From Bacteroidaceae bacterium (lineage in GTDB: Bacteria; Bacteroidota; Bacteroidia; Bacteroidales; Bacteroidaceae): DNA of 64,000 nt. The translations under genes were made by a program, and so were the position numbers. The stretch's first letter is position 1; each line of letters starts with the position of its first letter. The notes beneath the pieces are model-generated. The model had not been told where the DNA came from, made no database searches, and was given only the letters and a program-made list of their open reading frames with translations. The stretch spans positions 87,814 through 151,813 of the forward strand of contig JAFUVE010000026.1 in the NCBI GenBank assembly GCA_017483765.1. Direction: 5' to 3'. Below are positions 882 to 31,668 of the stretch, in pieces.

Positions 882-1055
882 TCAAGACTGCCCCTCTGCG
901 CCTGCGATGATGTTGATGACGGCCACGATGTCGGAAATGTCCACTTTCTCGTCTTCGTTGACATCGGCGTAGCGGTAAGTGGCGGTTCCAGCAATCTGGT
1001 TGATGATGGCCACGATGTCGCTGATGTCCACCTTTCCGTCCTCGTTCACGTCGCC
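882..1055 (-). repeat. dockerin-type module, copy A (coding)
   Basis: GDVNEDGKVDISDIVAIINQIAGTATYRYADVNEDEKVDISDIVAVINIIAG. This is two EF-hand-like loops, each followed by a helix. Confidence 0.8.
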
Positions 1056-3158: not shown

Positions 3159-3184
3159 AAGAAATGGGGTGTTATTTTGGGTTT

Positions 3185-3238
3185 TCCGGAGATTCCGGGT
3201 TATCCGGGTCGTCCGGAGATTCCGGATACTCCGGTTTG
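3185..3238. repeat. 6 x 9-bp tandem array with TCCGGA-type core
   Basis: Units are tccggagat tccgggtta tccgggtcg tccggagat tccggatac tccggtttg. The array lies between the 988-aa gene terminator and the PL11 start codon. Confidence 0.85.
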
Positions 3239-3245
3239 TGCTTAA

Positions 3246-3278: not shown

Positions 3279-3296
3279 TTGAGAGAATATGTTGAA

Positions 3297-3458
3297 TTAT
3301 TGTGCTGCGATGATGTTGATGACAGCTACGATGTCGGAGATGTCCACCTTCTCGTCACCGTTCACGTCAGCGTTTTCGTAGGTAGCGGTACCTGCAATCT
3401 GGTTGATGATAGCCACGATGTCAGAGATGTCTACCTTCTCGTCCATGTTCACGTCACC
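3297..3458 (-). repeat. dockerin-type module, copy B (coding)
   Basis: GDVNMDEKVDISDIVAIINQIAGTATYENADVNGDEKVDISDIVAVINIIAAQ. Confidence 0.8.
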
Positions 3459-6263
3459 AGGAATAGCCGTGATTGTCGGCTCGAAGTGAGGACCTTCGGC
3501 TACAGAAGCAAATCTGAAGATCTTGAGGTTGTCGAACCAGCAGCGGCGTGCCTGTGCGTTGGTGTTTGCTGAGTTGTAGTTGGATGAGAGTACGAACTTG
3601 GCAACCTTGTTGTCGGTGATGCTGGCGTCGCTGAGGTTGAGCATAGGCATCTCAGCGCCTTCGCACTTACCGTTCTTTCCGTTTTCGACTGTACCCTGCA
3701 GTGCAAGTGCCTTGAAGTCGAATACGAGGGTGAAGTGAGACTTGTTGTCATCAGTGCAGATACCTGCGTTGCCTACTGAGCTTGAGCCAAGACCTGTAGC
3801 ATATTTATAGATATCCATACCTGTACCACCACCCTTTTTGCTTAGTGACGTTTTGTCGTTGGTCTCACCGGTTGCGTTATTGAAATCGTTGTAATTCACT
3901 ACTCCGTTGTAACGGTCGATGCTGAATCCACCGAGACGCTGTCCTTCTGCGTTCTGGCACTCAACGGTGAGGAAGCCCTTGCTGAGGTTTCCGAGCCAGA
4001 GGTCGAACTCGACTTGGATGATTTCTTCGTCGGTAGGAATCTCATCTATAGGGAATTCTACAGTACCAGGAGAGTTAGCACCGCCACCTACGCGGAGCAC
4101 ATCGAGGAATGCGTCGCCGAATCCAAGCTGCCATGAGTGTCCTGACAGGTCGTGTGTCGGGTCTGTATCCACGTTGTTCACGTTGGAGAATACCATCTGG
4201 CCGGCTCCGTCATATGTGTCGGTCTTTCCGTCGATATAGTAGCTGGTGATGATAGTCGGGTCTTCTGCGTCAACGTTTGTAGCGAAAGCGCCGGAGAAGT
4301 CGATGTCGATGAATGGTTTGAGCTCGCCACTGTCGTCGAACACGGCTTTCGCATCATCAAGGTCGGTCAGTAATGTAGCCAGACGCTCTGAGTCTGCTTC
4401 CTTCTTCTCGTCGTTGGTGCTGGCGAGGATTTCAGCAAGAGTGGCCTCAGCCTGTGCGATGGCCTCTTGGTAAGGCTCATGGTCCTTAATCTGGTTCATA
4501 GGATTTTGGTCGTATTGCTTTGCTTCGGCAATCTTTGCCTGTACGTCTGCAATCGGCTTGTTCTGAGCTACGATGTAGTCGTTGGCCTTCTGGTAGCCGC
4601 GAACCACTGCATATTCCTTGTAAGTCTCGTAGTCAGCGTCTTCTCCGTGTTCGTCGAAGGTGTAGCCCTGGACGGTGGTCCACTCAATCAGCTCATCGTT
4701 GGTGGCTACACCTGTGTCGTTACCGTCTGCGTCAATCCAGTTGTCCTCTGTAATCTTGTTGAAGAACGGATCCCAGCGGTCGATTGTCGGCTGGATGGTG
4801 TCGTTAGCCCAAGGGAAGTTGCTGTCGGCTGCCTTTGCAAGCAGAGACTCACGTGCGCTCTTTGCTGCGTCAACCTGTGCCTTGAACGGAGTCCAGGCAC
4901 GGTAGCGCTCCACGCCTGCGATGATATCTTCGCCGAATGAGCGAATCTCCACGGCTCTGATTTCAAAGAAACCACCACCGTTAGGTGCACCTGGCCAGTC
5001 AACCTGTGCGCGGAACTTTCCGTCTTCTGCCACTTCGCCGATGATGTAGAATTTCTGGAACTGCTCACCTGAGATGGGACCGAGATCCTGTGTGGCTTCA
5101 CCAAGTGTCAGCTTACATACGCTTTCCAGCGTGAAGGTTGGATTGCAAGGCCATGAAGTCTTGTCAGTGTTGGCGTTTCTGATTTCGCAAGTCATAAAGT
5201 ATTTTCCTTTCGGGAAGTCCTGTGCAACGACAGCGATTGAGGCTGCTGTCTGACCATAACCAAGCTGGATGGCCCATCTGAGTGCGTTGTCTCCAGAGAG
5301 GTGGCCCCAGTTGCCGTTTCCTCCTACGCGTTCGAAGCAGCCGAAGTCGCCGTCACGTCCACGGCCAATTCCTCCGATGGAGGTGATGTCCACTTTCGGC
5401 AGGAACGAATTCATGTTGTTCGACTCAACGTCCATGAACAGGCCGAGGTCTTCCAAGAGTGCGTTCATGGAATCTTCTGCATCAGTCTTACTGTCGAACT
5501 GACCGTCAGCGATAGCCGCTTCGATGGCAGAGATGTCTTCTTCTACAACAGATTTTGCGTCAGCTGCTGCCTCTGTGTTGAAGTTTTCGTCAGCGATGAT
5601 GCTCTTGGCATAGGCAAGCATACGGTCGGAGATACGGGTGTCGTACACTTCCTCCAATTCAACTACCTGAAGGTTGTTTCCGATCACACACTCCGTGTTG
5701 ATGCGGCTGAAGACGATGTTGAGGTAACCGCCGGGCTGGTCCTGACCATCCGAAGGCTCTGCGTTCACTGCGAGGGTGTCGGCGAATGCCCACGAAATTT
5801 CTGACCATTCGTTGCCCTTGACTGTTGCAGCAGCAGCTACCTGAGTGTAGTCGATGTTTGTGCTTCCCACTCTGATGTTGTAGTCGTCAGGATAGTGAGT
5901 CACCCATGCGTCAATCTGGTTCTGGCCGTTGGTCTCGATAGAGGTTGATCCGTCGGCAGTGGCCTTGAATTTCATCGTAAGGATGTAGTTCTTTCCATAC
6001 TCGATTGGCAGTGCATACGTGATGAAGTCACCTTCATCGCTCCTGGTGCTCTGGATTCCATCGTAGTCGTCCTCTGTCGCTGCGGTGTAGGGCGAGAAAA
6101 TCGCACTGGAGTAGTTGTACCACTCTGTGAATGCAGGGATGTCGAGAATCCTCTTCACCTTGTACTTTGCTGTCGACGTGTAAACATAGTCGTTTACACT
6201 GTACTGCGCGTTCATGCTGACAACAGCAAACAACGCACATAATGAAAGTAGCAGTTTTTTCAT
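3297..6263 (-). CDS. secreted multidomain protein of unknown function (no catalytic motif recognised) with C-terminal dockerin-type module
   Basis: 988-aa ORF with a signal peptide (LCALFAVVSMNAQ). Beta-rich segments alternate with Ala/Glu/Asp-rich helical linkers. The dockerin module is the last 53 aa. Confidence 0.75.
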   Translation of the reverse strand: MKKLLLSLCALFAVVSMNAQYSVNDYVYTSTAKYKVKRILDIPAFTEWYNYSSAIFSPYTAATEDDYDGIQSTRSDEGDFITYALPIEYGKNYILTMKFKATADGSTSIETNGQNQIDAWVTHYPDDYNIRVGSTNIDYTQVAAAATVKGNEWSEISWAFADTLAVNAEPSDGQDQPGGYLNIVFSRINTECVIGNNLQVVELEEVYDTRISDRMLAYAKSIIADENFNTEAAADAKSVVEEDISAIEAAIADGQFDSKTDAEDSMNALLEDLGLFMDVESNNMNSFLPKVDITSIGGIGRGRDGDFGCFERVGGNGNWGHLSGDNALRWAIQLGYGQTAASIAVVAQDFPKGKYFMTCEIRNANTDKTSWPCNPTFTLESVCKLTLGEATQDLGPISGEQFQKFYIIGEVAEDGKFRAQVDWPGAPNGGGFFEIRAVEIRSFGEDIIAGVERYRAWTPFKAQVDAAKSARESLLAKAADSNFPWANDTIQPTIDRWDPFFNKITEDNWIDADGNDTGVATNDELIEWTTVQGYTFDEHGEDADYETYKEYAVVRGYQKANDYIVAQNKPIADVQAKIAEAKQYDQNPMNQIKDHEPYQEAIAQAEATLAEILASTNDEKKEADSERLATLLTDLDDAKAVFDDSGELKPFIDIDFSGAFATNVDAEDPTIITSYYIDGKTDTYDGAGQMVFSNVNNVDTDPTHDLSGHSWQLGFGDAFLDVLRVGGGANSPGTVEFPIDEIPTDEEIIQVEFDLWLGNLSKGFLTVECQNAEGQRLGGFSIDRYNGVVNYNDFNNATGETNDKTSLSKKGGGTGMDIYKYATGLGSSSVGNAGICTDDNKSHFTLVFDFKALALQGTVENGKNGKCEGAEMPMLNLSDASITDNKVAKFVLSSNYNSANTNAQARRCWFDNLKIFRFASVAEGPHFEPTITAIPGDVNMDEKVDISDIVAIINQIAGTATYENADVNGDEKVDISDIVAVINIIAAQ

Positions 6264-7004: not shown

Positions 7005-8996
7005 TTATTTCTTGAATGGCAGATACCAGTTCTGCTGGTTGCTGAGGTCCTTCACGGGGTTGTTGTTCTTCACCTTCTTGGCGAGCCATGCGCTTCCTTG
7101 CAAGCCGGCGTTGTTCTTGTGCTTGGCGAATCGCATCAAGTCATACCAGCGGGTGCCTTCGAAGCAGAACTCCATCGCCTCTTCGTCGCAGAGCAGCTCC
7201 TCCATCGCCATGATGGTGTCCTGCTTGGTCAGCATGTCGCCGTAGGGAGCAGGGTCAACGTGGTATTCAGGAATGATGGTCTCGCCTGTCTCTTCGTCCG
7301 TCGTCGCGTTGGCAATCGCCTCCTGGCGGGCTGCCTCAAGGTCGGCCGCATATTTGCGTGAGTGGTCGATTCTCTGGGCGAGGCCTGGATAGAGGGTTGC
7401 GTCGGCAGAAAGCACTCTAAGCATGGAGTCCACTTGAGTCTGGAACTGATAAGGAGAGGAACCGATGTAGTTGGCGTCGCTGGTGAAGCCGTGACCGTGC
7501 TGGTGGATCGGGTAGCTCTTTCCGAAGAAGGTCTCATAGTTGGCGTCGCTGAGGAACGTCTCGTTGAGGTAGTCGAGCGACTTCTGAGAGAGCCATGGCT
7601 GACGGCGGAGTGAGGCGTTGATGCCTTCCTTTAGGAATCCGAAAGCAAGGTCGGGCATCTCCATGCGGTTGAGGGCCTCGCACAAGTGGAGATAGACGGT
7701 GGTCAGACGGTAGAGGATGATGTTTCCGCTCTGGAACTTGTTGATCCACGTGATGTCTTCCTCATCTTCTTCGAGTGTGGTCTGTCCTTGCATCGTGCGC
7801 ATGATGGCGATGCTGCGCATGTCGCCGAACTTGATGGCCTTCACGTCGTTCATGTTGTTCGTCGGACTCGTTCCGACAACCTTGTACCGGTAGTAGTAGT
7901 CCTGGTTCTCGGTGAGGTAGGTGTAGTCGGCCGACGGCTGCAGCTGGAACTCTGTAATCCATGGAGCTGACAGCGAATAATAGTCATAGCCGAATGCCTT
8001 CGGCACGAGGGTGGTCGGACCGTTCACGCTGTTTACTGCCATCGGAATATAAGATATCACGTCGGTAGGAGTTCCGTTGGCAGCGAAAATGCTGGTGTAG
8101 GATGCCGCCCCCGAGAAGTTGTTGTTTCCGTAGTCATAGTCGCTTGGCGGCAGGATGTCCATATTCCGTCGGGTGAAAGTGGCCACGATGTTGGTCATCG
8201 GCTTCTTGGTCATAGTCAGGTAATCCACATAGCACTTGGCAGCGCGCTCGTAGTTGCCTGTCTCCAGGTACATGTCGCCGAGCACCACGCCCACCGGTAC
8301 GAAGATGTTCTTGAAGGTGACGGTCTTCGCACCTCCGCTGTTGGTGTTGCCCACGTTGATGTTGGCTCCGTAGTTGGGCACGTCGAATCCTGTGAACTTC
8401 AGCATCTCAGGTGCCAGTTCGGCAGTGATTTGCTCGAGGTTGTACTCCGGGAAGGTGTTGCCGTTGATTTGTGAGATGGTGGTCAGAGGCTCGGTGAAGA
8501 ACGGAACGGTTCCGTAGTTGCGGCAGAGCTGCAGATAGGCCCATGCTCGGAAGGCAAGCACGGCTGCATATTCTTTCACTGCCACTTTCTCACCTCCGGT
8601 CTGCAGTGTGGTGTCGCGGTGGGCGATGTAGTAGTTGCAGTTGTTGATCACACGGTAGTAAACATAGGCGGAGTCGTATTTGTTCTCCACTCCGGCGCTG
8701 AAGTCTTTCAATTGGTTGAGCGTGGAGTCGGTGTATTGTGTGGTAGCCACGAGCTCACCTCTCATCTCTCCTTGGAAGAAATACTGGTCGGCCAGCAGCT
8801 GCATGGCCTGTCCGATACCGAAGGCATAGAAGACGGAGTCGGTCTTCGCGTTCATGTCGGGGTCGAAGGTCTGCATGTCGCTCTCGGTCTCCATCATGTC
8901 CTCGCAGGAGGATAAGATTGTAGAGGTCATGGGCAGGCAGACGAGGGCTATCAGCAAGGCAAAACCGCTTCTCATATTGAATTTCATCTTTTTCAT
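7005..8996 (-). CDS. susD: SusD/RagB-family outer-membrane lipoprotein
   Basis: 663-aa ORF with a lipobox (ILSSC). It has the SusD-like helical core motif (LAFRAWAYLQLCRNYGTVPFF). It lies immediately downstream of susC. Confidence 0.9.
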   Translation of the reverse strand: MKKMKFNMRSGFALLIALVCLPMTSTILSSCEDMMETESDMQTFDPDMNAKTDSVFYAFGIGQAMQLLADQYFFQGEMRGELVATTQYTDSTLNQLKDFSAGVENKYDSAYVYYRVINNCNYYIAHRDTTLQTGGEKVAVKEYAAVLAFRAWAYLQLCRNYGTVPFFTEPLTTISQINGNTFPEYNLEQITAELAPEMLKFTGFDVPNYGANINVGNTNSGGAKTVTFKNIFVPVGVVLGDMYLETGNYERAAKCYVDYLTMTKKPMTNIVATFTRRNMDILPPSDYDYGNNNFSGAASYTSIFAANGTPTDVISYIPMAVNSVNGPTTLVPKAFGYDYYSLSAPWITEFQLQPSADYTYLTENQDYYYRYKVVGTSPTNNMNDVKAIKFGDMRSIAIMRTMQGQTTLEEDEEDITWINKFQSGNIILYRLTTVYLHLCEALNRMEMPDLAFGFLKEGINASLRRQPWLSQKSLDYLNETFLSDANYETFFGKSYPIHQHGHGFTSDANYIGSSPYQFQTQVDSMLRVLSADATLYPGLAQRIDHSRKYAADLEAARQEAIANATTDEETGETIIPEYHVDPAPYGDMLTKQDTIMAMEELLCDEEAMEFCFEGTRWYDLMRFAKHKNNAGLQGSAWLAKKVKNNNPVKDLSNQQNWYLPFKK

Positions 8997-9075: not shown

Positions 9076-12000
9076 TTAGAGGTTCACTCTCACACCGAAG
9101 AGGAAGGTGCGGCTCAGTGAGATGTTGCCGGCGTCGATGCCTTGGAAAAGCACGCCGTTGCCTGCGCTGAACTCAGGGTCGCCGCCTTTGTACTTGGAGA
9201 TGGTGAAGAGGTTCTGTGCCTCTGCCCAGAGGGTGAGTCCCTGAAGCCATGAGCTTGACGACGGAACTGGCACCTTATATGAGATGTTCACGTTCTTCAG
9301 TCTCAGGTAGCTTCCGTCCTCTATCCATCGGTCGCTGAAACGGTTGTTGCCCATCGGGTCGCCGTAGTTCACGCGTGGCATGTCGGTCTGCTGGCCTTCG
9401 TAGCGCCAGTGGCTTGTCTCTGCCACCTGCTGGTTGTAGAAGTTGCTTCCTGAGTTGATGATGGACCGCTGGTAGTTGTAGATGTCGTTGCCTACGCTGT
9501 AGTTGAAGTTCATGCTCAGGGTCACCCGCTTGTAGTTCACGTTAGCGAAGATGTGGCCGTAGATGTCAGGGTTGGGGTCGCCGATGACAACCTTGTCCTT
9601 GTCGTTGATCTCCTTGTCGCCGTTCTGGTCGATGAATCTGACGTCGCCGCCCTCAAAGTAGTTCTGAACGCCTGCTGCATTCTTCACGTACAAGCCGTCG
9701 GCATCGGCGTCAGCCGTCGTTTTGTATACACCGTCGGTCTTGAAGCCGTAGAACACGCCTACCGGTTTGCCAACTGCGGTGAGGATGTTGTTGTCGCCGT
9801 AGATGGAAGAGGTGTAGTCACCGTCGGGCAGTGAAGTCACCTTGTTCTTGTAGTGGCCCATCGTGGCTCCCATCTCGATGTTCCAGTCCTTCGTCACTAC
9901 AGGCTTGAACGAGAGAGCTGCCTCAAAACCTTCGTTCTTGAGGGCGCCTCCGTTGGTCCAGTATGCGTTGATACCTCCTACAGGGTTGTCGAATGTCTTG
10001 AGTGTGAGCAGGTCGCTGGTCTTGTGGATGAAATAGTTGAAGGCGAACGACAGACGGTTGTTGATGAAGTTACCTTCCATACCCAAGTTGAACTTCTTGG
10101 TGAGCTCCCACTTGATCTCGTCGTTACCGATATTGGTGAGCTGTGAGCCAGTCACGTGATAGTGGTATCTGACAGAGCTGAAAGAAGTCCGTGCTGCATA
10201 GTTGGAGATTCCGTCGTTACCGCTGGTGTCGAATCCGGCGTTCAGGCGGAGGTAGTTCACTGCCTTGTTGCGCTTGAACCACTTCTCGTTAGTCAGAACC
10301 CATCCTGCCTGAACGCTGGGGAAGAACGCCCAGCTGACGCCTGCTATCTTGCTTCCGGCCTTTTCGCCGAAGCGGCTGTTGGTCTCGGCAAGGAGCGAGA
10401 GGGTGAGGAAGTACTTGTTCTGGTAGTTGTAGTCAGCGTTTCCGTACCACTGGATTTGTTTCCACACGTCGTTCGATCCGTCGTTGTCGGAGAAGGCCTG
10501 CGAGTCGTCGGTGCTCAGCGCGGCGTTCTTGTCGTCGGTCTGGCCCTTGTACTGTGATGACAGAGCTGTGCCGTCATATTTGAAACGGTTGAACTTGAAT
10601 CCTCCGAACACGTCGATGGTGTGGCTTCCATACTGGTTCCCCCATTTCAGACGTGTGTCGCTGAGGAAGTTGTTCTCAGTGGCCTGGTATGATCCCACCT
10701 TTGCATAGACGGTACCCAGCTCGCTGATGACGAACGGTGGAACGCCGGAGTAGGGGCGGAAATATTTCTGGTTGTTGCGCACGAGTGAGTAAGCCACCAT
10801 CTCAGTCAGGAACAAGTGCTTGTTGATCTCCAGTGTCGGTGCGAGCGTGATGTTGAAGTATGTGTTCTCGTTCTTGTTCTTGTGCTCGCCCGATCCGTTG
10901 GTCAGGATGGCCACGGGGTTGGCAAGCGACTGCGCTGTGCCGAGACCGCCCGTCACGTTGTTCAGCTGGCTGAAGATGTCGTCGTAGTTGCTCAGGATGT
11001 TGGAGAGCTTTCCTGTCTGCGCGTTGTAGGTGTAAGGCGCCACGATAGGCGACTTGATGAGCGCGAGGAAGTTGGGCGATGTGATGGCGCCCTGGCTGAG
11101 GTTGGCAGGAATAGCTGTGTCGAGCACCTTGCTGTTGGTACGCGAGATTGACATGTTGAACACGGTCTTGAGGATCGGCAGAATCTCGATGTCGGTGTTG
11201 AAGCGGATGTTGAACCGGTCGAAGTCGCTCTTCTTCATCGTGTTCTTGGCATTCATGTAGCCAACGGAGAGGTTGTACATACCCACATCGTCACCTCCCT
11301 GCACGTTCACGCTGTAGTTCTGCGTCATGGCCTCTCGGTAGATGTAGTCTTCCCAGTCCGTGTTGTTGTGGTACATATTATAGTAGTAGCCGTTGGGGTC
11401 ATCGTTGAGGAAGTTCATCGTGAGTGTGCGGTTGTAGTCTTTCACTGCGTCGATGGTTCCGATCATCTCAGAGGCATAGGTGCGGTACTGCTTTGCGTTC
11501 ATCATCTTAGGCAGTGTGGGAATGAGCTGAACACCGGCATAGATGTCAGCGTCGATTCTCGTGGCCATCGAGTGGCCGCGCTTGGTCTTGATGAGGATGA
11601 CTCCGTTACCACCTCTTGAACCGTAAAGCGCGGTGGCGTTCTTCACGACTTCCACGCTCTCGATGTCGTTGGGCGAGAGGTTGGCGAGCACGTTCATGAA
11701 CTGTCCCTCGTGCAAGGCCGTGCGGTCGAGCATCATGTCCTGCTCGATTCCGTCGATGACGATGAGCGGCTGGGCGTTGGCGTTGATGGAGTTGAGTCCT
11801 CTGATGAACATCGAAGCTCCGTTCTCTATCATTCCTGACCGTGTGATGGACCTTACGTCTCCCTGCAGTTGCTGGTTGATGTGCCCGTCCGGAGTGGCAT
11901 AGTGGCCCTCCATGTTCACCTTCTTGGTGGCTGTGTATTTCGTGTCGTTCCCATACATTTCATAGAACTTGTCGCTGAGCATCTTGATGCGTATGGGTGT

Positions 12001-18117: not shown

Positions 18118-21100
18118 TTAGAATCCTATATTAAGTGTGGCTGTGAACTGCTTTGAACGGGGTGTGCGCGAGTTGTCGGACGCGATTCCCCATCCGCCTA
18201 CGGATACTTCCGGGTCCACACCGCTGTAGTTGGTCCAGCAGTAGAGGTTGTTCATGGAAGCATAGATTGCGAGGCTGCTGATGCCGTACTTCTTCAGCTT
18301 CTTCGGGTCGAAGGAGTAGGAGAGCTGCAGGTTCTGGAAGCGGACGAAGGATCCGTCCTCCACGTATTTGCTTGAGCCCATGTAGTTGTAGCCCGTACCG
18401 TAGAGCGCGCGTGGGATCGGAGTGTCGTCGCCGTCCTTGCGCCAGCGGTAGTTCACGGTTGAGGTCTGGTTGAATACGGTGTACATGTTCTCGAGGTTGG
18501 CTCTTGCCAGGTTCACGATTTTGTTGCCGGTACGGTAGTTGAAACGTGCGACGAGCTTCCATCTTCCATATTTGAATGTGAAGCTGAAACCTCCGTTGAA
18601 CTTTGGCATGGAGTTGCCGAGGTACACGATGTCGAGAGCGTTGATCTGGCCGTCGTTGTTGATGTCCTCGAAGATGGCGTCACCTCCCTGGAAGGCATAG
18701 GTGTAGGCTCCGTCGTCGTAGTTGTAGACGAGGCGCTGAGGGGTGCCGTTGTTGTTCATCACGACGTTGCCGTTGGCGTCACGTACCACTGGGAATGTCT
18801 TTCCGTCCTTAAGCTGTCCGTTAATCCAGTCCTGGTACATGGCAGTGGTGAAGGTCTGGCCGTTCTGGCTGTAGGCCAGCTCCTGCTCCTTGCGGTAGTT
18901 CTCGAGATAGGAGTATGAGTACTGGTATGTGCCCTTGAACTTATAACCGTAGATGGAACCGAGCGGGTTGTTCTCCTGGATGAGGTTGAGGTATTTTGTG
19001 CTTCCGGCCGGGCTACGGACATCGTCCCATGTGGTGTTGATGGCGTCGAGCACACGCTGGTCCATTGACTTGATGTTGTTCACGTTCTGGGCGATGTTGA
19101 AGCTGGCTGAGATGGTGAACTTCTTTCCGATCTTGATGAAGTCTTTTCCGGTGATGTTCATTTCCCATCCGTTGTTGGTCATCTCGCCCACGTTGTACCA
19201 GCTGAGTGAGCCGAAACCAGTGGATGTAGGGATGTTCACGGCTTGCATCAGCAGGTCGGAGGTGTTCTTGCGGTAGTAGTCGAAGTCCATCTGCAACTTG
19301 TCGTCGAAGAGGTTGAGGTTACCTCCAAGGTTGTATGACGTGGTCTTCTCCCATCTGAGGTCGTCGAGGTTGACTCCTGACACCGTTGCGTAGATGTCGG
19401 TGTTGGAGCCTTTTCCGTAAGAGCCCTGGTTCACGTAGTAGTAGTTGTAGATTGCGTTGTTGCTCGTAGGAGCGCGTCCGTTGATACCCCAGCTGGCACG
19501 GAATGCGAGCATCGACACTTCCTTGGGCATCCAGCTGCGAATCCACTTCTCGTCAATCATGTTCCAACGTCCTGACAGACCAGGGAACATAGCCCACTTG
19601 TGGTCGGGGCCGAACTTGGAGTTACCGTCGAGACGTGCGGATACGCCGAGGGAGTAGATACTCTTGTAGGAAGCGTGGGCATTGAAGAGGATGTTCTCGT
19701 CAGCGCTCTTGCTTGTTGAGCTCGACATGCCTCCGTTGGCTGCGTCCACCGTCGGAGCTGTGATGCCCGGAGGGAGGTTGTATACGGTGTTGGACTGTGC
19801 GGTCGACTTCGATGTGTGCATCTGGTAGCGGAGGAGTGACGTGAAGGAGATGTCCTCGTTGTTGAAGTGAGGTGTGAACGTCAGCTTGCCTTCCATTCCC
19901 ATCTTGAATCGGTTGGACTCGGAGCTGGTGCTGATGTTGTAGTTTCCGTCGCGCCAGCCTGTACCGGTGTTGTTACCCGTGGTAAGCTCTGCCGGATACC
20001 ATGTGGGCGATGAGTTGGAGTAGATATCGAAGTCCACGTTGGCGTCCAATGTGAGGCGGTGTTTGTCGGAGCTTGTTCCGAGCAGCTCGTAGCGGAGGTT
20101 GAAGTCAGGAACGATACGGTAGGTCGTCTCCTTCTTCCATGCCTTGTTGGCAATAGCCACAGGGTTGCCCAGGCCGCGTATGCCCGACAGCGACTGTGAA
20201 GAGAAGTTTCCGGCGTAGGGGTCGCCCGACGGCATCATATAGTAGAACTCGTCGGTGTTGTGGCCGTACTCGTCCTGACGGTAGATCGACATGTTCGGAG
20301 CCATTTTCTGCGCGATGGCGAGCAAGTCAGAGTCGTTCTTCTCGTTGTTCGTGTAGGTGAGTGCGAAGTTGGTGGAGAAGCGTATGCGGTTACTTACGTC
20401 GTAGTCGAGCACGAGGCGCGTGGTGAGACGGTCGAGGTGCTGCTTGATGATCGAACCGCTTTGGTTGTCGTAGCTACCCGAGATTCGGAACGTGGCATTC
20501 TCTCCACCGCCCGATATGTTCATGTTGATGTTATGGAGCTTTCCGAAGTCGCTCACTGCGTCCACCCAGTCGGTGTTGTTGTTCCAGTTCTCATACTCAG
20601 CCCATGAGCGGTCGTAGTTGATCTCGGCGATGTTCGTCGTGGCCGTTGAGCGCTGGGCGGGGTTGTAGAACTCTTCCTTGAGCATCATGGTGTAGTCGTC
20701 ACCGTTCAGCAGCTTGTAGCCGCTCGGCATCCATGTGCCTGTGAACTTGTAGGAGAACTGCACTTTCGTCGGGCCTCTCTTACCGCGCTTGGTCTTGATC
20801 TGGATCACACCGTTGGCACCGTAGGCTCCCCATACGGCAGTTGCTGCGGCGTCCTTGAGGACGGTGATGCTCTCGATGTCGTCTACGTTCACGGAGAGAA
20901 GTGACGCGTACTGCTCCTCGTCAGCGTTGGCGAAGTCGAAGTTCTCGTCCGGGTTGTCGAATATCTTGTCGTCCACGACGATGAGCGGGTTTGCGTCGCC
21001 GTTGATGGTGGTGACACCACGCAGGCGCATCTGGGTTCCTGCACCGAGGTTACCTGAGGTTGACACGATGTCGAGACCGGCGATCTCACCTTGCAGCGCC

Positions 21101-21567
21101 TCGTCGGCAGATGTGAAGGCGAGACCTTCCACGTCCTCCATGCTCATGGTCTGGCTGGCCACGGTCATCTCGCGTACGGGAATGGTCAGTCCGCCTGAAC
21201 TCTGTTTGCGCGTCGCCTTGATGACAACTTCCTGAATCTGTCCCTGTGCCTCCATCTTCACATTGAATACAGTGCGTCCTTTCAGAGGCATAGTGACGGT
21301 CTTGTTTCCGACGAATGAGATTTGGAGCGTGTTGTTCTGGCTCTTGATCGCCATGGAGAAATTACCGTTGATGTCGGTTGACGTATGATTGACGATACGG
21401 TTGTTGGCGTCTTTCTCCACCACCGTAGCCATCATGACGGGGCCCATGTCGTCTTCCACCGTTCCTGAGATGCGCTGTGCCATGGCAGTAGCCGACCACA
21501 GTCCCATCAAAACGGTGATAAGGAAAATCCTTAGTTTCTTATTGCCCAATATCAATATATTATTCAT
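18118..21567 (-). CDS. susC: SusC/RagA-family TonB-dependent transporter (second pair)
   Basis: 1149-aa ORF. It has a CarbopepD_reg-like N-terminus (ISGTVEDDMGPVMMATVVEKD), a plug (GTQMRLRGVTTINGDANPLIVVDD) and a terminal ..TATLNIGF. Confidence 0.92.
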   Translation of the reverse strand: MNNILILGNKKLRIFLITVLMGLWSATAMAQRISGTVEDDMGPVMMATVVEKDANNRIVNHTSTDINGNFSMAIKSQNNTLQISFVGNKTVTMPLKGRTVFNVKMEAQGQIQEVVIKATRKQSSGGLTIPVREMTVASQTMSMEDVEGLAFTSADEALQGEIAGLDIVSTSGNLGAGTQMRLRGVTTINGDANPLIVVDDKIFDNPDENFDFANADEEQYASLLSVNVDDIESITVLKDAAATAVWGAYGANGVIQIKTKRGKRGPTKVQFSYKFTGTWMPSGYKLLNGDDYTMMLKEEFYNPAQRSTATTNIAEINYDRSWAEYENWNNNTDWVDAVSDFGKLHNINMNISGGGENATFRISGSYDNQSGSIIKQHLDRLTTRLVLDYDVSNRIRFSTNFALTYTNNEKNDSDLLAIAQKMAPNMSIYRQDEYGHNTDEFYYMMPSGDPYAGNFSSQSLSGIRGLGNPVAIANKAWKKETTYRIVPDFNLRYELLGTSSDKHRLTLDANVDFDIYSNSSPTWYPAELTTGNNTGTGWRDGNYNISTSSESNRFKMGMEGKLTFTPHFNNEDISFTSLLRYQMHTSKSTAQSNTVYNLPPGITAPTVDAANGGMSSSTSKSADENILFNAHASYKSIYSLGVSARLDGNSKFGPDHKWAMFPGLSGRWNMIDEKWIRSWMPKEVSMLAFRASWGINGRAPTSNNAIYNYYYVNQGSYGKGSNTDIYATVSGVNLDDLRWEKTTSYNLGGNLNLFDDKLQMDFDYYRKNTSDLLMQAVNIPTSTGFGSLSWYNVGEMTNNGWEMNITGKDFIKIGKKFTISASFNIAQNVNNIKSMDQRVLDAINTTWDDVRSPAGSTKYLNLIQENNPLGSIYGYKFKGTYQYSYSYLENYRKEQELAYSQNGQTFTTAMYQDWINGQLKDGKTFPVVRDANGNVVMNNNGTPQRLVYNYDDGAYTYAFQGGDAIFEDINNDGQINALDIVYLGNSMPKFNGGFSFTFKYGRWKLVARFNYRTGNKIVNLARANLENMYTVFNQTSTVNYRWRKDGDDTPIPRALYGTGYNYMGSSKYVEDGSFVRFQNLQLSYSFDPKKLKKYGISSLAIYASMNNLYCWTNYSGVDPEVSVGGWGIASDNSRTPRSKQFTATLNIGF

Positions 21568-21608: not shown

Positions 21609-24563
21609 TTATAGTGCGTTAAGCAGATCGTCCACGGTGAAGTCGTCGGCCTTCCATCCTTCGTCATATCTGAGTGAGCTGTCGAAGTAGAATGGCTCGG
21701 TGATTTCGTGTATTACGCAGAATGATGAGGTGAGAATGCTGTTGTTGGCTGCTCCACGGTCTTTGTTGAGCCAGTAGTCGCGTGCCATGATATTGCTCAG
21801 TCGCTGGCCGTTGTTTGCGTCCACTGTGTGCTGCTGGCCTCCGCCGTCGGTGATGGTGAGAACACCACCGCTGCAGCTGACACGGTTTTCCTTCAGCGGC
21901 TGGTTGGCTGGGGCGAACATGCTCTGATATGCGCCGTTGCCGCCGTCGCTTGCGGGGATATACTGGTCGGCATAGAGTGCGATATACTGGAAGTGGTATT
22001 TGCAGAACTCGTTCATCTTCTCCACTTTCTGCTTCAGAACTGAGGCATAAGGCTCAGGGCATTTCTCCTTTGAGCTGGCTTCTGTGGCCTTCTCGTAGAT
22101 CTCGCTGATTTCGTCCCAAGACGGAAGTCCGGCTGCATAGGCCTTCTCCATGGCTTCGTTGTCGGGAGCATAGAGCGTGTAGTTGAATGTGTTGAACATT
22201 TTCACGTTACCTTCCTTGGCAAGACTGCGGTTCTTCACCTGGTTGAAGCTGTAGTCGGTTGAGAAGATGAGCTTGCGCTGCTGGTCGGACACGCCGAACG
22301 GGTCCTTTGCGTAGTCGCTCGAATAGCCAATCCAGTACATGATGTCGGAGTTGGCGAATCCTGCGCACAACTCGTAGAACTCAGAGAAGCGTGGCTCGTT
22401 GGCAAGCACCTGTGACACGCTGTGGATGGTGGGCTGAATCACGTGGTCCACGCGGTAAGCATATCCGTTGTCCTCGCGCTCTGCCACCTCCACGGTGCTG
22501 GCAGGCAGGATGACGTCGCCGCCGGGCACGAGCGGACGGATTTGGCTTCCGCTCTTCACGGTCCAGTTGCCGCCGTTCTGCTCCACGAGCAGCTCGCCGC
22601 CACCCTTGGTCTTGTAGTATTTGTTTCCGGTGGTGATGGGGTCGCCGTTGGCCACGTCCTCGTTCTCAAGCACCACGGTGTGGTTGTCCATGATGTCGGC
22701 GAGTGCTGACTTGATCTGGTCCTTGCTCGAGTTGAAGTTCAGGTCAGACTGGTTGGTCGTGATTTCTCCGGTTTTCAGGTCGATGGTGTAGGCGCGTGCG
22801 CCGAGATACTGCTGGGAGCGCAGGTTGCGGTCTGTGTTGTCATACCAGAAGTGGATTACTTGTCCCTTGTTGGTGTCCCAGTTGATGGATGCCGGGTCGA
22901 GATAGTAGATGTCGGATGAGCCGAATGCGTCGTCATCCGGTACGAAGAATGCGTACTTGGCCTTCATGGCAAGCAGGTAGTACTGGAAGTCGATGCCCAG
23001 GTAGCCGGTGTATTTTTCCTCAACTGCCCAGTCCATGACTTTCATGTCGCGGTACGTAGCCACAGGACCGAGCACAGAGCGGTAGCGGTCGGGGGCGAGC
23101 ACACCGTGAATCTTGTAAATGATACCGTTGTTCGCTATCTTGATGTCGTATTTCCCGTCGGGACGAACAACGAGTGAGTCGATGCTCATGTTGAGCAGCT
23201 CGCTTGCGTCGTTGATGATTTCAGGGAACTTGCTCGGCACGGTTGAGATGAACGAAGTCTTCTCGATGTTGTTTACGAACGATGTGAGAATGACAGGGTT
23301 GGCATTGTGAACGGAGTCGAGGTTCTCAAGCAGGTTTTCCCGTGTGTTTTCCTTCTTGCCGTATTCATTGATGATGAATGCGCCCTTTGTGCTGAAATAA
23401 TTCCACAGCGCGTCGTCTGTTGGCACGAACATGGCTCCCATGTCCGTGATTTTCGCGATGTCGGCTGTCGATCGGTTGGAGTTGGGGTAGTATTCGTTCC
23501 ATCCTGGGTCGTAGTTGAGCACCTCGTTTGTGGCCCTTGCCGTTCCGTTCGGGTCTGTGTTGCCGTCGACACCCTGGGAGATGACGCTGAGGTATCTTAC
23601 CTTATATATATTGTCGTGCTGCGTGTAGCCGTTCTTGTTGGCTGCCTCAGGGTTCTGGGTCACCCAGGCGTTGTACGATGTTGTTGTCGCTGCGTCGGGA
23701 TAAGCCACCTTGAAGTAGTCCAGGATATGGCTGAAGTACTGGGTGTCCTTGTCTTTCTGGATGACCTGGGCCATGTTACCCGGCTGAACGAGCACGTCCT
23801 GCACCTGGTGGATGTATCCGTTGAGGCAGGTGATGTCCTTGTTGATGATCTTGTTGTTGTAGATGTAGACCGGCTTCTCGGCGTCGTCGTATGGTTCGCC
23901 GGTGATGATGGCGAAGTCGGACTGGTCGCCTTGTGTGGAGATTCCGTTGTTCACCATCTGCTCACGAGTGAAATGCACAATGGGAGGAGTGGTGTTGTCA
24001 CACACAGCCCAGATGGGTTGACCGGTTTCTTTGAATGCGGTCCAGTAGCTGTTGTTCTTCGGCATTTCAGCCGGCGTGATTTTGGTGATGGAGTCAATCA
24101 CGCTGATGTTTGAAGGGTGTTTCAGCGCCATGCCCTCAGCGATTCCAGTCGTGGCTGTTGTCGACTCCACGTTGGAGAGCATGCTGGTCAGCAGGGCGTT
24201 GTCGAGCATCGACGAGTAGAGAAGCATCTTCTTCTGAGCATAAGTCAGTTCCTCGTAGGAGGATACGCCCCACTCGTTGCTTTGGAAGAATCGCTTGAAC
24301 GCGTCGTCGTTGGCAGGGAAGATGGTCTTGCTACCAGTCCGGTTGAGCGTCTCGTCATATCCGAGGTCGTCGATGAGCTTCAGATACGTCGTGAACGTTC
24401 CCGTCAGTTTTTTTCCACTCTTGAGTTCGGAATAAATACTTCCTCCGAGCCATGATGGAGTGGAATCCTCGTCCACATCGCCGTAGATGTCCCCATACGT
24501 GTCGTCGCAGGAGACCAATAGCAATGATCCCAAGAATAACGTTAGTAATAGTACTTTTTTCAT
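21609..24563 (-). CDS. large fasciclin (FAS1) multi-domain lipoprotein
   Basis: The start is taken at MKKVLLLTLFLGSLLLVSC (lipobox) rather than the track start at 24620. FAS1 motifs are KTIFPANDDAFKRFF and YTLYAPDNEAMEKAY. Confidence 0.8.
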   Translation of the reverse strand: MKKVLLLTLFLGSLLLVSCDDTYGDIYGDVDEDSTPSWLGGSIYSELKSGKKLTGTFTTYLKLIDDLGYDETLNRTGSKTIFPANDDAFKRFFQSNEWGVSSYEELTYAQKKMLLYSSMLDNALLTSMLSNVESTTATTGIAEGMALKHPSNISVIDSITKITPAEMPKNNSYWTAFKETGQPIWAVCDNTTPPIVHFTREQMVNNGISTQGDQSDFAIITGEPYDDAEKPVYIYNNKIINKDITCLNGYIHQVQDVLVQPGNMAQVIQKDKDTQYFSHILDYFKVAYPDAATTTSYNAWVTQNPEAANKNGYTQHDNIYKVRYLSVISQGVDGNTDPNGTARATNEVLNYDPGWNEYYPNSNRSTADIAKITDMGAMFVPTDDALWNYFSTKGAFIINEYGKKENTRENLLENLDSVHNANPVILTSFVNNIEKTSFISTVPSKFPEIINDASELLNMSIDSLVVRPDGKYDIKIANNGIIYKIHGVLAPDRYRSVLGPVATYRDMKVMDWAVEEKYTGYLGIDFQYYLLAMKAKYAFFVPDDDAFGSSDIYYLDPASINWDTNKGQVIHFWYDNTDRNLRSQQYLGARAYTIDLKTGEITTNQSDLNFNSSKDQIKSALADIMDNHTVVLENEDVANGDPITTGNKYYKTKGGGELLVEQNGGNWTVKSGSQIRPLVPGGDVILPASTVEVAEREDNGYAYRVDHVIQPTIHSVSQVLANEPRFSEFYELCAGFANSDIMYWIGYSSDYAKDPFGVSDQQRKLIFSTDYSFNQVKNRSLAKEGNVKMFNTFNYTLYAPDNEAMEKAYAAGLPSWDEISEIYEKATEASSKEKCPEPYASVLKQKVEKMNEFCKYHFQYIALYADQYIPASDGGNGAYQSMFAPANQPLKENRVSCSGGVLTITDGGGQQHTVDANNGQRLSNIMARDYWLNKDRGAANNSILTSSFCVIHEITEPFYFDSSLRYDEGWKADDFTVDDLLNAL

Positions 24564-24610
24564 AAATGTTATTTTAGTAATAATTGAAGTGTTTTCTATA
24601 GCAGTAAGTG

Positions 24611-24723: not shown

Positions 24724-24885
24724 TCATTGTGCGGCAATGATATTGATGACTGCCACGATGTCACTGATATCAACATTCTTGTCGTTGTTGACGTCGGCGT
24801 ATCGGTAGGTTGCAGTGCCGGCAATCTGGTTGATGATGGCCACGATGTCGGAGATGTCCACCTGTCCGTCCTCGTTCACGTCGCC
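24724..24885 (-). repeat. dockerin-type module, copy C (coding)
   Basis: GDVNEDGQVDISDIVAIINQIAGTATYRYADVNNDKNVDISDIVAVINIIAAQ. Confidence 0.8.
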
Positions 24886-29388: not shown

Positions 29389-29398
29389 AAGTTTAGTA

Positions 29399-29433
29399 TA
29401 GTTTTTAGTTTTTAGTTTTCTGTTGTTTGTTGT
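29399..29433. repeat. 7-bp tandem array (tagtttt x3, then ctgttgt ttgttgt)
   Basis: Lies in the spacer between the two PL11 genes. Confidence 0.7.
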
Positions 29434-29481
29434 TATCCTGGTCTTTCAGGCTGGTGGAGTATCAAAGTCAATTTTCAGCTA

Positions 29482-29643
29482 TTAAGATTCTGCAATGATA
29501 TTGATGACTGCCACGATATCGCTGATATCAACATTCTCGTCGTTGTTGACGTCGGCATACCGGTAGGTGGAGGTGCCGGCAATCTGGTTGATGATGGCCA
29601 CGATGTCTGAAATGTCGACCAGTCCGTCCTCGTTGACGTCGCC
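29482..29643 (-). repeat. dockerin-type module, copy D (coding)
   Basis: GDVNEDGLVDISDIVAIINQIAGTSTYRYADVNNDENVDISDIVAVINIIAES. Confidence 0.8.
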
Positions 29644-31668
29644 TTTCAGCGGTTCAACCTCGTCGATAAGTGGCACTTGCTCCATGTCCATACCGGTTCC
29701 GAGGAAGTAGCCGAGGTTGGTAGGCTGGTTGTAGCCGATGTTCTCGTTCAGTGCCGACATCAGGTATGTGTGGTCGCTCATCAGGTAAGGGAACTTATAT
29801 TCTGTAGGAAACCACGTGGAGAATATCTTCAGGTCTACCAGCCTTGTGGCGTCAGGAACGATGAATTCCTCCCTCCAGTCGCCCAATATGTCTCCGTACC
29901 ATGAGGTGTTGGACTTGGTTCCGTTGATGAAGCTCATGTCGTAGCGGTAGATGGTGAAGACACGTCCGTTCTTCACGCTCTGGATAATGTTCTCGTTGAT
30001 AAGCTGACGCTGCAGAGTGCCGTCGAACCATATGCCCATGTTGCAGGAAGCAGGCTTGTAGCCGAGGTCGCTGCCTTGATAGTCGAAGGCGTTGGAGCCT
30101 GCCATCCAGAACTCGCATCCTGGGTGGTCGGGGTCGATGTCGGCCACCATGCAGCGTCCCATGTCGTTGTCTTCCGTGCCCACCTTGCTCCAGATGACCT
30201 TACCCGTTGCTGCGTCGTGGAGTGCAACCTGTGTCTTTCCGCTTTCAAGGCAGTGGTACATCTGAAGGCCATCGCGGTCGGGCAGGAACTTACCGACGTG
30301 GTTGGCGTCTCCGTGTCCGAGCTTGGTGGTCCAGAGCCCGATACCGTCCTGGTCGAGCGCCATGCTTCCGTACATAATCTCGTCGTATCCGTCGCCGTCG
30401 AGGTCTGCAACGTTGAGTGAGTGGTTGCCCTGGCCGGCATATGCGCTGTTGGGGTTGCCGTCCTTTCCCTTCCCGCTCTTGGAGGTGTCGAAAGTCCAGG
30501 CGATGGAGAGCTTTCCGTCGCGGTAGTCATAGCGCCGGATGACAGAGCGGGCGTACACGCCACGTCCGACCACGACCGACGGCAGCCCCGTGTCGTCGAA
30601 GCAGCCTACGCCGATTCGGAAGGAGCAGGCGCGCTTCCAGTAGCCGTCGCCCCAGGACTCGCTCGTGTCCCGGTTGATGAAGTTCTCTCGGGCCAGCTCC
30701 TTGCCGGTCTGGCCGTCGATGATGGATAGGAATTCCGGGCCCGCCGAGTTATAGTGGTCCACCCATCCGTTATTTCCCCATGTACGGTAGTCGATTTTCC
30801 CGTCGCCGTTCGTGTCGGGGATTGCTTGCCCGTCGCCGAAGACGGTGCCCTCGCAGGTGCGTATCGCCATCTCGGCACATCCGTCGCCGTCGAAGTCGGC
30901 TATGGCGAAACTGGAGCTGTTGCCCAGGATGATACCCGGACCTCCCTTGACGCGCCACAGGAACGTGCCGTCAAGCTTGTAGGCGTCCCAGATCACGGCA
31001 TAGATGGTGGCGGGGTTGGAGTAGCTGCCACCGATTCCGTACTCGTCGCGAAGCGCACCTGTGGAGGTGTTGTAGGAAGTCTGAAGACGCTTCACCACGA
31101 TTTCCATCTCGCCGTCGCCGTCGAGGTCGCCTACGCTCACGTCGTTGGCCTGATAGACGATGGAGTCGATGCTGCATACGTCCTTTGTGTCCTTCAAGGG
31201 GATGGATATAAAGGGAACTTTAGCTTTGTAGATGTTCTCTCCGACCGTGACGGAGTCCACGCAGAAGGACATGAGTCTTGCCTTTTCCTCCGAGTTCGAC
31301 ACCATGCTCTTCGGTGTGTCGGTGTATTCCTGCTTGATGAGGAAATACGTGGTGGCTGACGATGGAGGTGTAGTCTGGAAGCAGGTTGAGTTGACGACTG
31401 CCTTGATGGTCTTTCGGCTGAGAATGCCGCCATAGTTGGTGGCAGACCTGCTGTAGATGTAGAATCCGGTGTCCCATTTGTCGGTGGGAAGCATGCGCCA
31501 TGACAGCAGCAGCTTGTTGTTGTCCTTAGTGTAGTTGCTGGAGTTGGACGTGTTGCCGATGTTGTTGATGGAGGCCCACATCTTTCGTGGTCCCCGGCAT
31601 GAAGTCTGTGCGTCGATACTGCCCGATGCCAGCATAGCGCAAAATGCGAAGGTAAGCAGTTTTTTCAT
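29482..31668 (-). CDS. PL11-family rhamnogalacturonan lyase-like beta-propeller protein with C-terminal dockerin-type module
   Basis: 728-aa ORF with a signal peptide. FG-GAP/YesW-like motifs are present: VGDLDGDGEMEIVVK, ADFDGDGCAEMAIRT, ADLDGDGYDEIMYG and YLMSDHTYLMSALNENIGYNQPTN. The dockerin module is the last 53 aa. Confidence 0.82.
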   Translation of the reverse strand: MKKLLTFAFCAMLASGSIDAQTSCRGPRKMWASINNIGNTSNSSNYTKDNNKLLLSWRMLPTDKWDTGFYIYSRSATNYGGILSRKTIKAVVNSTCFQTTPPSSATTYFLIKQEYTDTPKSMVSNSEEKARLMSFCVDSVTVGENIYKAKVPFISIPLKDTKDVCSIDSIVYQANDVSVGDLDGDGEMEIVVKRLQTSYNTSTGALRDEYGIGGSYSNPATIYAVIWDAYKLDGTFLWRVKGGPGIILGNSSSFAIADFDGDGCAEMAIRTCEGTVFGDGQAIPDTNGDGKIDYRTWGNNGWVDHYNSAGPEFLSIIDGQTGKELARENFINRDTSESWGDGYWKRACSFRIGVGCFDDTGLPSVVVGRGVYARSVIRRYDYRDGKLSIAWTFDTSKSGKGKDGNPNSAYAGQGNHSLNVADLDGDGYDEIMYGSMALDQDGIGLWTTKLGHGDANHVGKFLPDRDGLQMYHCLESGKTQVALHDAATGKVIWSKVGTEDNDMGRCMVADIDPDHPGCEFWMAGSNAFDYQGSDLGYKPASCNMGIWFDGTLQRQLINENIIQSVKNGRVFTIYRYDMSFINGTKSNTSWYGDILGDWREEFIVPDATRLVDLKIFSTWFPTEYKFPYLMSDHTYLMSALNENIGYNQPTNLGYFLGTGMDMEQVPLIDEVEPLKGDVNEDGLVDISDIVAIINQIAGTSTYRYADVNNDENVDISDIVAVINIIAES

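Follow-up and report, generated by a model that had tools for sequence, protein, structure and literature searches.

Dockerin modules without a recognisable cohesin partner have been documented in Bacteroidetes since 2016. In the work of Bensoussan et al. (PMC6487960), 8.8% of rumen dockerins were found in Bacteroidetes, and all contigs with both a cohesin and a dockerin belonged to Firmicutes. Camel-rumen Bacteroidetes bins contained 11 dockerins and 0 cohesins (PMC6071333), and a later camel study found cohesins in Firmicutes_A only. Li et al. (PMC7260996) called the role of Bacteroidetes dockerins unclear, with cohesins either absent or too divergent for recognition, and dockerins in polysaccharide utilization loci (PULs) of rumen Bacteroidetes had been reported before, with a role that 'is not defined yet' (PMC7480376). 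Prevotellaceae dominate the rumen, and it is understood only in part how they place enzymes on the cell or outside it. Here we analyze a 64-kb stretch of a Bacteroidaceae genome (contig JAFUVE010000026.1, positions 87,814 to 151,813; the whole stretch is called the window below), in which four proteins of one rhamnogalacturonan PUL end in a dockerin, and we describe a family of small proteins from rumen Prevotellaceae, predicted to have the cohesin fold, as candidate partners of such dockerins. The original prediction, made from the letters of the window, had presented the dockerin-tagged PUL without a cohesin as new; given the reports just cited, the window is better seen as a well-resolved new instance.

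The four PUL proteins are three predicted lyases of family PL11, called here lyases A, C and D, and a 988-aa protein. Their common C-terminal module, translated from four minus-strand intervals (Table 1), reads GDVN.D..VDISDIVAIINQIAGT[AS]TY..ADVN.D..VDISDIVAVINIIA. Copies A-D match the Pfam Dockerin_1 profile (PF00404) at positions 1-56 of 57 with 32.7-36.9 bits, the gathering cut-off being 22.9 bits. The module is made of two near-identical segments joined by the linker TATYRYA (TATYENA in copy B); each 12-residue loop has D1, N3, D5, D9 and D12 and runs into I-S-D-I-V-A, and past the core of copy A there are five more residues and a stop codon, reaching position 882. The nearest solved sequences in a PDB search are dockerins of R. 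flavefaciens and C. thermocellum, and in the AlphaFold2 (AF2) model of the 988-aa protein the dockerin has helices at residues 946-956 and 975-985, in a block with predicted local distance difference test scores (pLDDT) of mostly 82-91. Judged by profile, loops and model, the modules in the window are genuine type-I-like dockerins, as was originally predicted, and all copies do keep the same putative recognition residues after each loop. The signal peptides of the four proteins are of the plain signal peptidase I (SPI) type ending AQ, with no lipobox Cys, and no sorting domain of the type IX secretion system (T9SS) was found by Pfam and NCBIfam models on any of the five dockerin proteins of the window, in agreement with the original prediction, which had contrasted these proteins with the usual Bacteroidetes PUL enzymes (lipoproteins or T9SS cargo).

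The module is not confined to C-termini or to PULs. The fifth copy in the window, E, is a complete dockerin of the same subtype that follows directly the signal peptide of a 541-aa protein outside the PUL, and in related metagenome-assembled genomes (MAGs) the module is N-terminal or internal in several proteins (collected loci L012, L015, L017, L032, L040 and L043); such copies argue against a purely C-terminal cleaved sorting signal. Related MAGs also carry it on leucine-rich repeat (LRR) proteins, glycoside hydrolases (GH) and other proteins outside PULs. Free-standing open reading frames (ORFs) of 64 aa, containing little beyond a dockerin of the window subtype (L170, 2552-2746, P0003; also L171-L175), recur beside an ATPase_2/AAA gene in several metagenomes and could be remnants or mobile donors of the module. 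A database search with the bare 54-aa module gave mostly contig-end fragments, with little information on architecture.

No cohesin was recognised in the window by the original prediction, and we found none either. Pfam Cohesin has no match in the window ORFs scanned, two home-made cohesin profiles have none in all six frames, and when 33 window proteins were compared with the cohesin profiles by hhalign, the best probability was 2.9%, in a test which, according to its controls, detects same-family members only. Sequence searches of the 988-aa, fasciclin (FAS1) and 541-aa proteins against PDB gave no cohesin. The 988-aa protein was considered as a cohesin-bearing adaptor and ruled out, its AF2 model being similar to carbohydrate-binding modules (CBMs), with no cohesin among the top 50 Foldseek matches. 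An ORF of at least 1958 aa at 58126-64000 on the plus strand, running off the window end, was considered as a scaffoldin and likewise ruled out, as it encodes a BspA-like surface protein with 15 DUF285 leucine-rich-repeat units; its relatives in L010 and L169 end in a dockerin, and the C-terminus of the window ORF lies beyond the window. Finally, L056, which has a window-lineage gene with an N-terminal dockerin segment, showed no cohesin next to that gene on inspection.

Candidate partners came from elsewhere in the rumen Prevotellaceae. A cohesin profile started from CipA cohesins in PDB alignments was iterated over 1.3 Mb of collected contig sequence; it detected, as a positive control, cohesins beside dockerins in five non-Bacteroidales loci, and gave borderline matches in three Prevotellaceae or 'Bacteroidaceae' loci (L029, L032 and L058). 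The L029 protein, from a Prevotellaceae MAG, has a signal peptide, two cohesin domains and a dockerin, and scores 31.5 bits with Pfam Cohesin (PF00963; gathering cut-off 24.1); L032 scores 20.4 bits, below that cut-off, and the two L058 proteins have no Pfam Cohesin match. Database searches with the domains of these three loci produced 232 proteins, almost all of 180-230 aa, none of them functionally annotated, and the few named ones listed as 'hypothetical protein', e.g. '[Bacteroidaceae bacterium]'. These small proteins consist of a signal peptide ('...ATAQ|TLSV...'), a domain of ~130 aa, and then either a T9SS-like tail, discussed below, or a complete dockerin. Family members are found in the rumen Prevotellaceae loci L029, L032, L058, L081 and L089-L168.

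Several lines of evidence connect this family to cohesins. A profile made from the database matches alone recovers L029 (E = 4e-13) and L032 (E = 3e-20); hhalign of the family against classical cohesins gives a probability of 82.6% (E = 1e-5); and Pfam Cohesin, the top family for the set, matches 12 of 55 members at E <= 0.01. The AF2 model of a family member has a pLDDT of 84, with the core above 90, and its top 50 Foldseek matches in PDB are all cohesins, of all types, with probability 1.00, E-values down to 4.8e-9 and template-modelling (TM) scores up to 0.81. The small Prevotellaceae proteins thus have, according to the model, the cohesin fold, and the existence of such a family does not support the assumption, made at the outset, that cohesin-dockerin assembly is a clostridial feature. 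Their marginal Pfam scores explain why surveys using E < 1e-5 or gathering cut-offs reported no cohesins. Each of these Prevotellaceae proteins has one cohesin, or two in L029, and no multi-cohesin scaffoldin was seen among them; neither an SLH domain nor a sortase-signal domain was detected when the L058 and L029 proteins and the 55 family members were scanned with Pfam and NCBIfam. A search of the literature for earlier descriptions of Bacteroidales cohesins, or of cohesins linked to T9SS, gave nothing relevant.

Cohesin-fold and dockerin genes are also close on the chromosome. A dockerin-type segment is present in 65 of the 88 loci with a family member, many of which are contigs only 1-3 kb long; in the window, the regular expression used to detect segments picks up nothing but true dockerin segments. 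Upstream sequence of 600 nt or more was available for 67 cohesin genes, and 48 of them are preceded by a same-strand dockerin-segment gene ending within 700 nt, the median gap being 88 nt. The product of this preceding gene is a small secreted protein that carries one segment at its N-terminus, 'GDVNEDGKVDVADI.A.I.IMK.GG', and such a segment would need pairing with another for the full dockerin fold. Segments of this kind are close to segment 1 of the window module (GDVNEDGKVDIADIVAILNIM in L058, GDVNEDGKVDISDIVAIINQI in the window). The two-gene cassette, with the single-segment protein as gene 1 and a cohesin-fold protein with tail or dockerin as gene 2, is conserved in rumen Prevotellaceae and sometimes tandem-duplicated (L058, 8535-11258; L081, 6265-10564; L089-L168). 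After deduplication there are 85 cohesin ORFs, 16 of them with a fused dockerin and 31 with the tail at the end.

The same two C-terminal elements, dockerin and tail, replace each other in orthologs of the window proteins. The 988-aa protein, stripped of its signal peptide and dockerin, was used as a query in an exhaustive search that gave 124 representative homologs, mostly full length. Among the full-length ones (n=73), 50 end in a short tail of the type '...IYNLQGQRVQNPTKGLYIINGRKVVIK', 8 in dockerins of various subtypes, and the remaining ones mostly in variants of the tail. Lyase D gives a similar picture: of its 120 closest homologs, which are 57-96% identical to it, 101 have the tail and about 14 have dockerins of several subtypes, and the junction is at the same point in both cases, after '...MDMxQVPL'. 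Dockerin and tail are interchangeable in these two ortholog families. Moreover, the MAGs closest to the window carry the tail on other proteins, so that both tags coexist in one genome; in the window itself the tail profile has zero matches.

On orthologs and cohesin proteins alike, the tail has about 45 aa and the consensus '..(I/V)YDLxGRxVxxPxKGIYIxNGKKxxxK'. A profile built from 38 tails and searched against PDB matches the extreme C-termini of the secreted enzymes 4kca (residues 640-682, E = 5e-13), a GH43 endo-arabinanase of rumen-metagenome origin, and 7jvi (residues 801-842, E = 1e-9), and it matches weakly (E = 0.1-0.5; 'IFDMNGRRVA' versus 'VYDMSGRRVA') four entries of the T9SS C-terminal domain (CTD) of P. 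gingivalis RgpB. From these similarities the tail may reasonably be taken for a T9SS sorting or anchoring signal, and may represent a short sorting domain, common among secreted proteins of the Prevotella type, that curated models do not cover.

The relationships between the modules indicate how they were acquired. The PL11 domains of lyases A, C and D have a mutual identity of 28-34%, as against 77-88% for their dockerins, and codons for the same amino acid differ synonymously in 21-42% of cases among copies A-D, the closest pair being in the adjacent genes C and D (90% nucleotide identity). The synonymous differences indicate that the copies are old and conserved at the protein level, presumably by purifying selection, which is as one would expect for a single shared partner. 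A 28-nt run is indeed, as had been pointed out, exactly shared by copies A, C and D, with one mismatch in B; none is expected by chance, and under independent codon choice P is about 0.009 per pair, which makes it plausible that a short tract was converted or that a stretch was retained from the ancestor. The original prediction had proposed recent spread or gene conversion; neither recent spread nor wholesale recent gene conversion agrees with the synonymous differences, and at most a short tract of conversion is left of the proposal.

Transfer of a ready-made PL11-dockerin enzyme from clostridia, also envisaged earlier, does not agree with these data either. Divergent PL11 domains, the presence of the same dockerin on unrelated proteins, and mostly tailed lyase orthologs all point to the fusion having arisen by module swapping inside Prevotellaceae. 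Lyase C has a full-length ortholog in a different Prevotella (L020, 48% identity), whose dockerin is of another subtype, the one characteristic of that species. In general, dockerin subtypes are uniform inside each MAG and different between MAGs, which argues that the partner is encoded in the same genome; by the pattern of subtypes, the partner of the window dockerins is probably no exception.

We favor the following arrangement. The three PL11 lyases and the 988-aa protein would be exported to the periplasm via signal peptidase I, not lipidated and with no sorting domain of their own, and each dockerin would bind, in the presence of Ca2+, to a cohesin-fold protein whose gene lies in another part of the genome. 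Small proteins of the form 'signal peptide - cohesin - T9SS-like tail', such as those seen in related rumen Prevotellaceae, would be the anchors or carriers, and those of the form 'signal peptide - cohesin - dockerin' the adaptors. Targeting or anchoring, a cis function in the orthologs, would thus be provided in trans by the cohesin, and within the complex the lyases and the binding protein would stay on the cell surface, beside the two SusC/SusD importers. The chances that the dockerins tether non-lipidated PUL proteins to such a carrier or anchor stand, in our estimate, about even. As parts of this reading we infer that the window dockerins bind a family member, that the genome encodes one, that the tail is a T9SS signal, and that the complex is located at the cell surface.

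Several points weigh against it. No gene of the family occurs in the 64-kb window, nor in ~205 kb of sequence from the MAGs CAMOTI01 and JAEEOB01 and ~50 kb of other contigs whose dockerins are of the 'VDISDIVA' subtype, although all this is by estimate <10% of a genome and not decisive, and the exact 'VDISDIVA' subtype of the window is absent from every cohesin locus. The usual companions of the cohesin genes are genes for small proteins that have a single N-terminal segment, and these pairs may form a dedicated system unrelated to the two-segment C-terminal dockerins. The tail has no match to Pfam and NCBIfam T9SS models, and its likeness to the gingipain CTD is weak; moreover, the reading offers no route across the outer membrane for a protein without a CTD. 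Lastly, the binding tests in PMC6487960 concerned dockerins from five of 18 cohesin-plus-dockerin contigs, all from Firmicutes and none from Bacteroidetes. A bolder version, which we consider rather unlikely, would make cohesin and dockerin a split, trans-acting T9SS signal, with the tagged enzyme reaching the periplasm by Sec/SPI and binding there a small cohesin protein that has the sorting tail, and with the folded complex exported piggy-back via T9SS and fixed at the surface by the carrier. If true, it would allow one carrier gene to target many PUL enzymes, and enzymes would switch between targeting in cis (tail) and in trans (dockerin) by module swap.

Other explanations do without a cohesin of the same genome. 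The near-identity of the two segments and their very hydrophobic character (IVAIINQIA), the expectation that single-segment versions would have to pair for the full fold, and the involvement of Ca2+ in both PL11 enzymes and pectin could all be accommodated if the module had no separate partner and were a Ca2+-dependent stabilizing or self-associating (dockerin-dockerin) element, or bound Ca2+-bridged pectin. We find this quite unlikely, as many of the proteins with the module have no relation to pectin, the element it alternates with is a targeting-type tail and not a CBM, and it is tightly linked or fused to cohesin-fold genes.

The suggestion, made in the original prediction, of a non-cohesin receptor within the PUL (a FAS1 lipoprotein, a SusD-like protein or the 988-aa protein) has in our opinion a slim chance. 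The same dockerin is found on proteins encoded outside PULs, i.e., the 541-aa window protein and the LRR, GH and other proteins of related MAGs; the FAS1 proteins are PUL-specific and have no mutually conserved domain at E < 1e-10; the CBM-like model of the 988-aa protein speaks against a cohesin there; and hhalign finds nothing cohesin-like in the FAS1, SusD-like and 988-aa proteins. The replacement of the dockerin by the tail in orthologous PUL proteins also argues for general targeting and not for a PUL-specific partner. What can be said for such a receptor is that lipoprotein signals are present on the three FAS1 proteins and on both SusD-like ones, that in all of these but one SusD-like protein the Cys is followed by acidic residues, suggesting surface exposure, and that dockerin genes adjoin FAS1-type genes in two other PULs (L016 and L017).

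Orphan dockerins might instead dock on foreign rumen scaffoldins, for example those of Ruminococcus cellulosomes, with Prevotella enzymes as hitch-hikers. This would suit the repeated reports of no cohesin in Bacteroidetes MAGs of the rumen and the lateral transfer of dockerins from Firmicutes to Bacteroidetes proposed in the literature. It is very improbable given that subtypes are species-specific and genome-uniform, with orthologous enzymes carrying different subtypes in different Prevotella, which points to same-genome partners, that cohesin-fold genes exist in Prevotellaceae beside dockerin genes, and that the PUL needs its products generated close to its own SusC/D importers. A cis-acting, cleaved secretion or sorting signal with no stable partner is hardly credible at all, since, even if the dockerin occupies the position of the T9SS-like tail in orthologs and its carriers have no other export or anchor signal, copies are N-terminal or internal in the 541-aa protein and in the six loci listed above, and the helical Ca-binding fold is unlike the beta-sandwich of a T9SS CTD.

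The PUL itself occupies 882-36047, entirely on the minus strand, and contains two SusC/SusD pairs, three PL11 lyases and a hybrid two-component sensor/regulator (HTCS). In the order of transcription, HTCS is followed by lyase D, lyase C, a fasciclin lipoprotein, SusC/SusD pair 1, two fasciclin lipoproteins, SusC/SusD pair 2, the 988-aa protein and lyase A (Table 1). The 758-, 1554- and 728-aa proteins match RGL11_C with 357-558 bits (E = 1e-106 to 1e-167), and two of the three also have the N-terminal RGI_lyase domain, by which they are predicted rhamnogalacturonan lyases. In lyase C, PATR (autotransporter-type) repeats lie within residues ~730-1500, and ~800 aa between the PL11 domain and the dockerin are unannotated; this architecture is kept in the L020 ortholog. 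The 988-aa protein has no Pfam domain besides the dockerin. Its AF2 model (pLDDT 89) consists of three CBM-like jelly rolls with helical bundles between them, and has Foldseek matches to the surface glycan-binding protein SGBP-B of B. thetaiotaomicron, CBM4/22/51 and the C-terminal regions of Cry protoxins; by this model it is probably a glycan-binding protein. All three fasciclin proteins and one SusD-like protein have Cys followed by acidic residues, which in the FAS1 lipoproteins suggests surface exposure; the second SusD-like protein has the lipobox Cys without an acidic run. A sub-threshold Dockerin_1 match (16.7 bits, E = 0.0085) at residues 967-985 of the SusC-like protein at 18118-21567(-) is most likely a generic Ca-binding loop of the DxDxDG type and no dockerin.

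The G+C content of the window is 51%. The closest dockerin loci are in the MAGs CAMOTI01 ('uncultured Prevotellaceae') and JAEEOB01 ('Bacteroidaceae', Tb.RUG.277), and the named near homologs of lyase D are MAG proteins of 'Prevotella sp.' and 'Bacteroidales bacterium'; by similarity, the window is of the rumen-type Prevotellaceae. Just downstream of the PUL there is a tRNA-Ser(CGA) gene at 386-473(-), and then an inverted-repeat-rich stretch at 230-380; tRNA genes are common boundaries of acquired islands. The gene of the 541-aa protein has as neighbours an AAA-ATPase_like/PDDEXK_9 gene (43320-45329), an OMP_b-brl_2 gene (47555-48325) and a gene for a 180-aa possible lipoprotein (48359-48901). 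Further on, a cluster for surface-polysaccharide biosynthesis at 52150-57796 (Polysacc_synt_3 flippase, Branch, LicD, GT2) is split by a KilA-N gene (54613-55431) that lies on the other strand.

Table 1. Dockerin copies and genes of interest in the window (coordinates are positions within the window).
Feature	Position	Strand	Remarks
Dockerin A	900..1055	-	52-aa core, residues 702-753 of 758-aa lyase A; 36.5 bits
Dockerin B	3303..3458	-	Residues 936-987 of 988-aa protein; 36.9 bits
Dockerin C	24730..24885	-	Residues 1502-1553 of 1554-aa lyase C; 36.2 bits
Dockerin D	29488..29643	-	Residues 676-727 of 728-aa lyase D; 32.7 bits
Dockerin E	46796..46951	-	N-terminal, residues 36-87 of 541-aa protein; 27.2 bits; 65% identical to copy A
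Predicted PL11 rhamnogalacturonan lyase A, 758 aa	882..3158	-	SPI signal peptide ending AQ, RGI_lyase + RGL11_C, C-terminal dockerin
988-aa non-catalytic protein	3297..6263	-	SPI signal, three CBM-like beta-sandwiches with helical bundles between (model), C-terminal dockerin
SusD-like lipoprotein, pair 2	7005..8996	-	Domain scan and signal inspection
SusC-like TonB-dependent transporter, pair 2	9076..12366	-	Domain scan
Fasciclin (FAS1)-domain lipoprotein, 605 aa	12376..14193	-	Acidic residues after Cys
Fasciclin-domain lipoprotein, 704 aa	14215..16329	-	
SusD-like lipoprotein, pair 1	16356..18104	-	
SusC-like TonB-dependent transporter, pair 1	18118..21567	-	Domain scan
Fasciclin-domain lipoprotein, about 985 aa from MKKVLLL start	21609..24566	-	
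Predicted PL11 lyase C, 1554 aa	24724..29388	-	SPI signal, RGI_lyase + RGL11_C, PATR repeats, long extension, C-terminal dockerin
Predicted PL11 lyase D, 728 aa	29482..31668	-	SPI signal, RGL11_C, C-terminal dockerin
HTCS of the PUL	31791..36047	-	
541-aa secreted protein, outside the PUL	45431..47056	-	N-terminal dockerin directly after signal peptide

If the dockerins of the window do bind small cohesins of this family, a cohesin-dockerin system operates in a diderm, PUL-based organism, and the partner systematically escapes surveys in which the Pfam cohesin model is applied with strict cut-offs. There would then be a third route of surface targeting for PUL enzymes, besides lipidation and a T9SS domain in cis. 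The question is directly testable with defined proteins, namely the window dockerin, the candidate cohesins and the tail.

Earlier reports on rumen Bacteroidetes dockerins resemble the present case in that the carriers are both carbohydrate-active enzymes (CAZymes) and other proteins, sometimes in PULs, and that no Pfam cohesin is found in the bins. Those reports were at the census level, whereas here we have a complete rhamnogalacturonan PUL with four tagged proteins, interchange with a tail, and a candidate cohesin-fold family. With the type I dockerins of clostridia and ruminococci (C. thermocellum CelS/Xyn10B, R. flavefaciens group I; PDB: 2MTE, 2CCL and 5M2O) the window module shares two Ca2+ loop-helix segments and a full match to PF00404. 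With its nearly duplicated segments, the module could accommodate a dual binding mode, and dockerins of cellulosome producers are likewise uniform per genome and variable between species. In contrast to them, the window module belongs to a diderm Bacteroidales host, where it sits on PUL-encoded, SPI-secreted proteins; it is compact (52 aa) with a very short linker (7 aa), and has I-S and not S-T at positions 10-11. Also unlike the clostridial and ruminococcal cellulosomes, there is no multi-cohesin scaffoldin in evidence, and the partner is putative.

The two forms of the Prevotellaceae cohesin proteins, cohesin plus tail and cohesin plus dockerin, mirror the ScaE (cohesin and sortase anchor) and ScaC (cohesin and dockerin adaptor) proteins of R. 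flavefaciens, whose cohesins are both among the fold matches of the Prevotellaceae model. The putative anchor differs, being a tail similar to a T9SS CTD in place of an LPXTG sortase signal; in Prevotellaceae the cohesin gene is usually preceded by one whose product has a single dockerin segment at the N-terminus, and the family is known from genomes other than that of the window. The tail, in turn, aligns locally ('IFDMNGRRVA') with the T9SS type A CTD (RgpB, PDB: 5HFS; TIGR04183/PF18962) and is, like it, at the extreme C-terminus of secreted enzymes, while being only ~45 aa long and unrecognised by curated models; the dockerin proteins of the window do not have it. Finally, the locus follows the logic of the canonical Bacteroides PULs (SusCD 'utilisomes'), with HTCS, two SusC/D pairs, surface lipoproteins (FAS1) and endo-acting lyases. 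The difference from the enzymes and SGBPs of those PULs is that the lyases and the CBM-like protein of the window are not lipoproteins, and the dockerin is the only candidate for their address tag.

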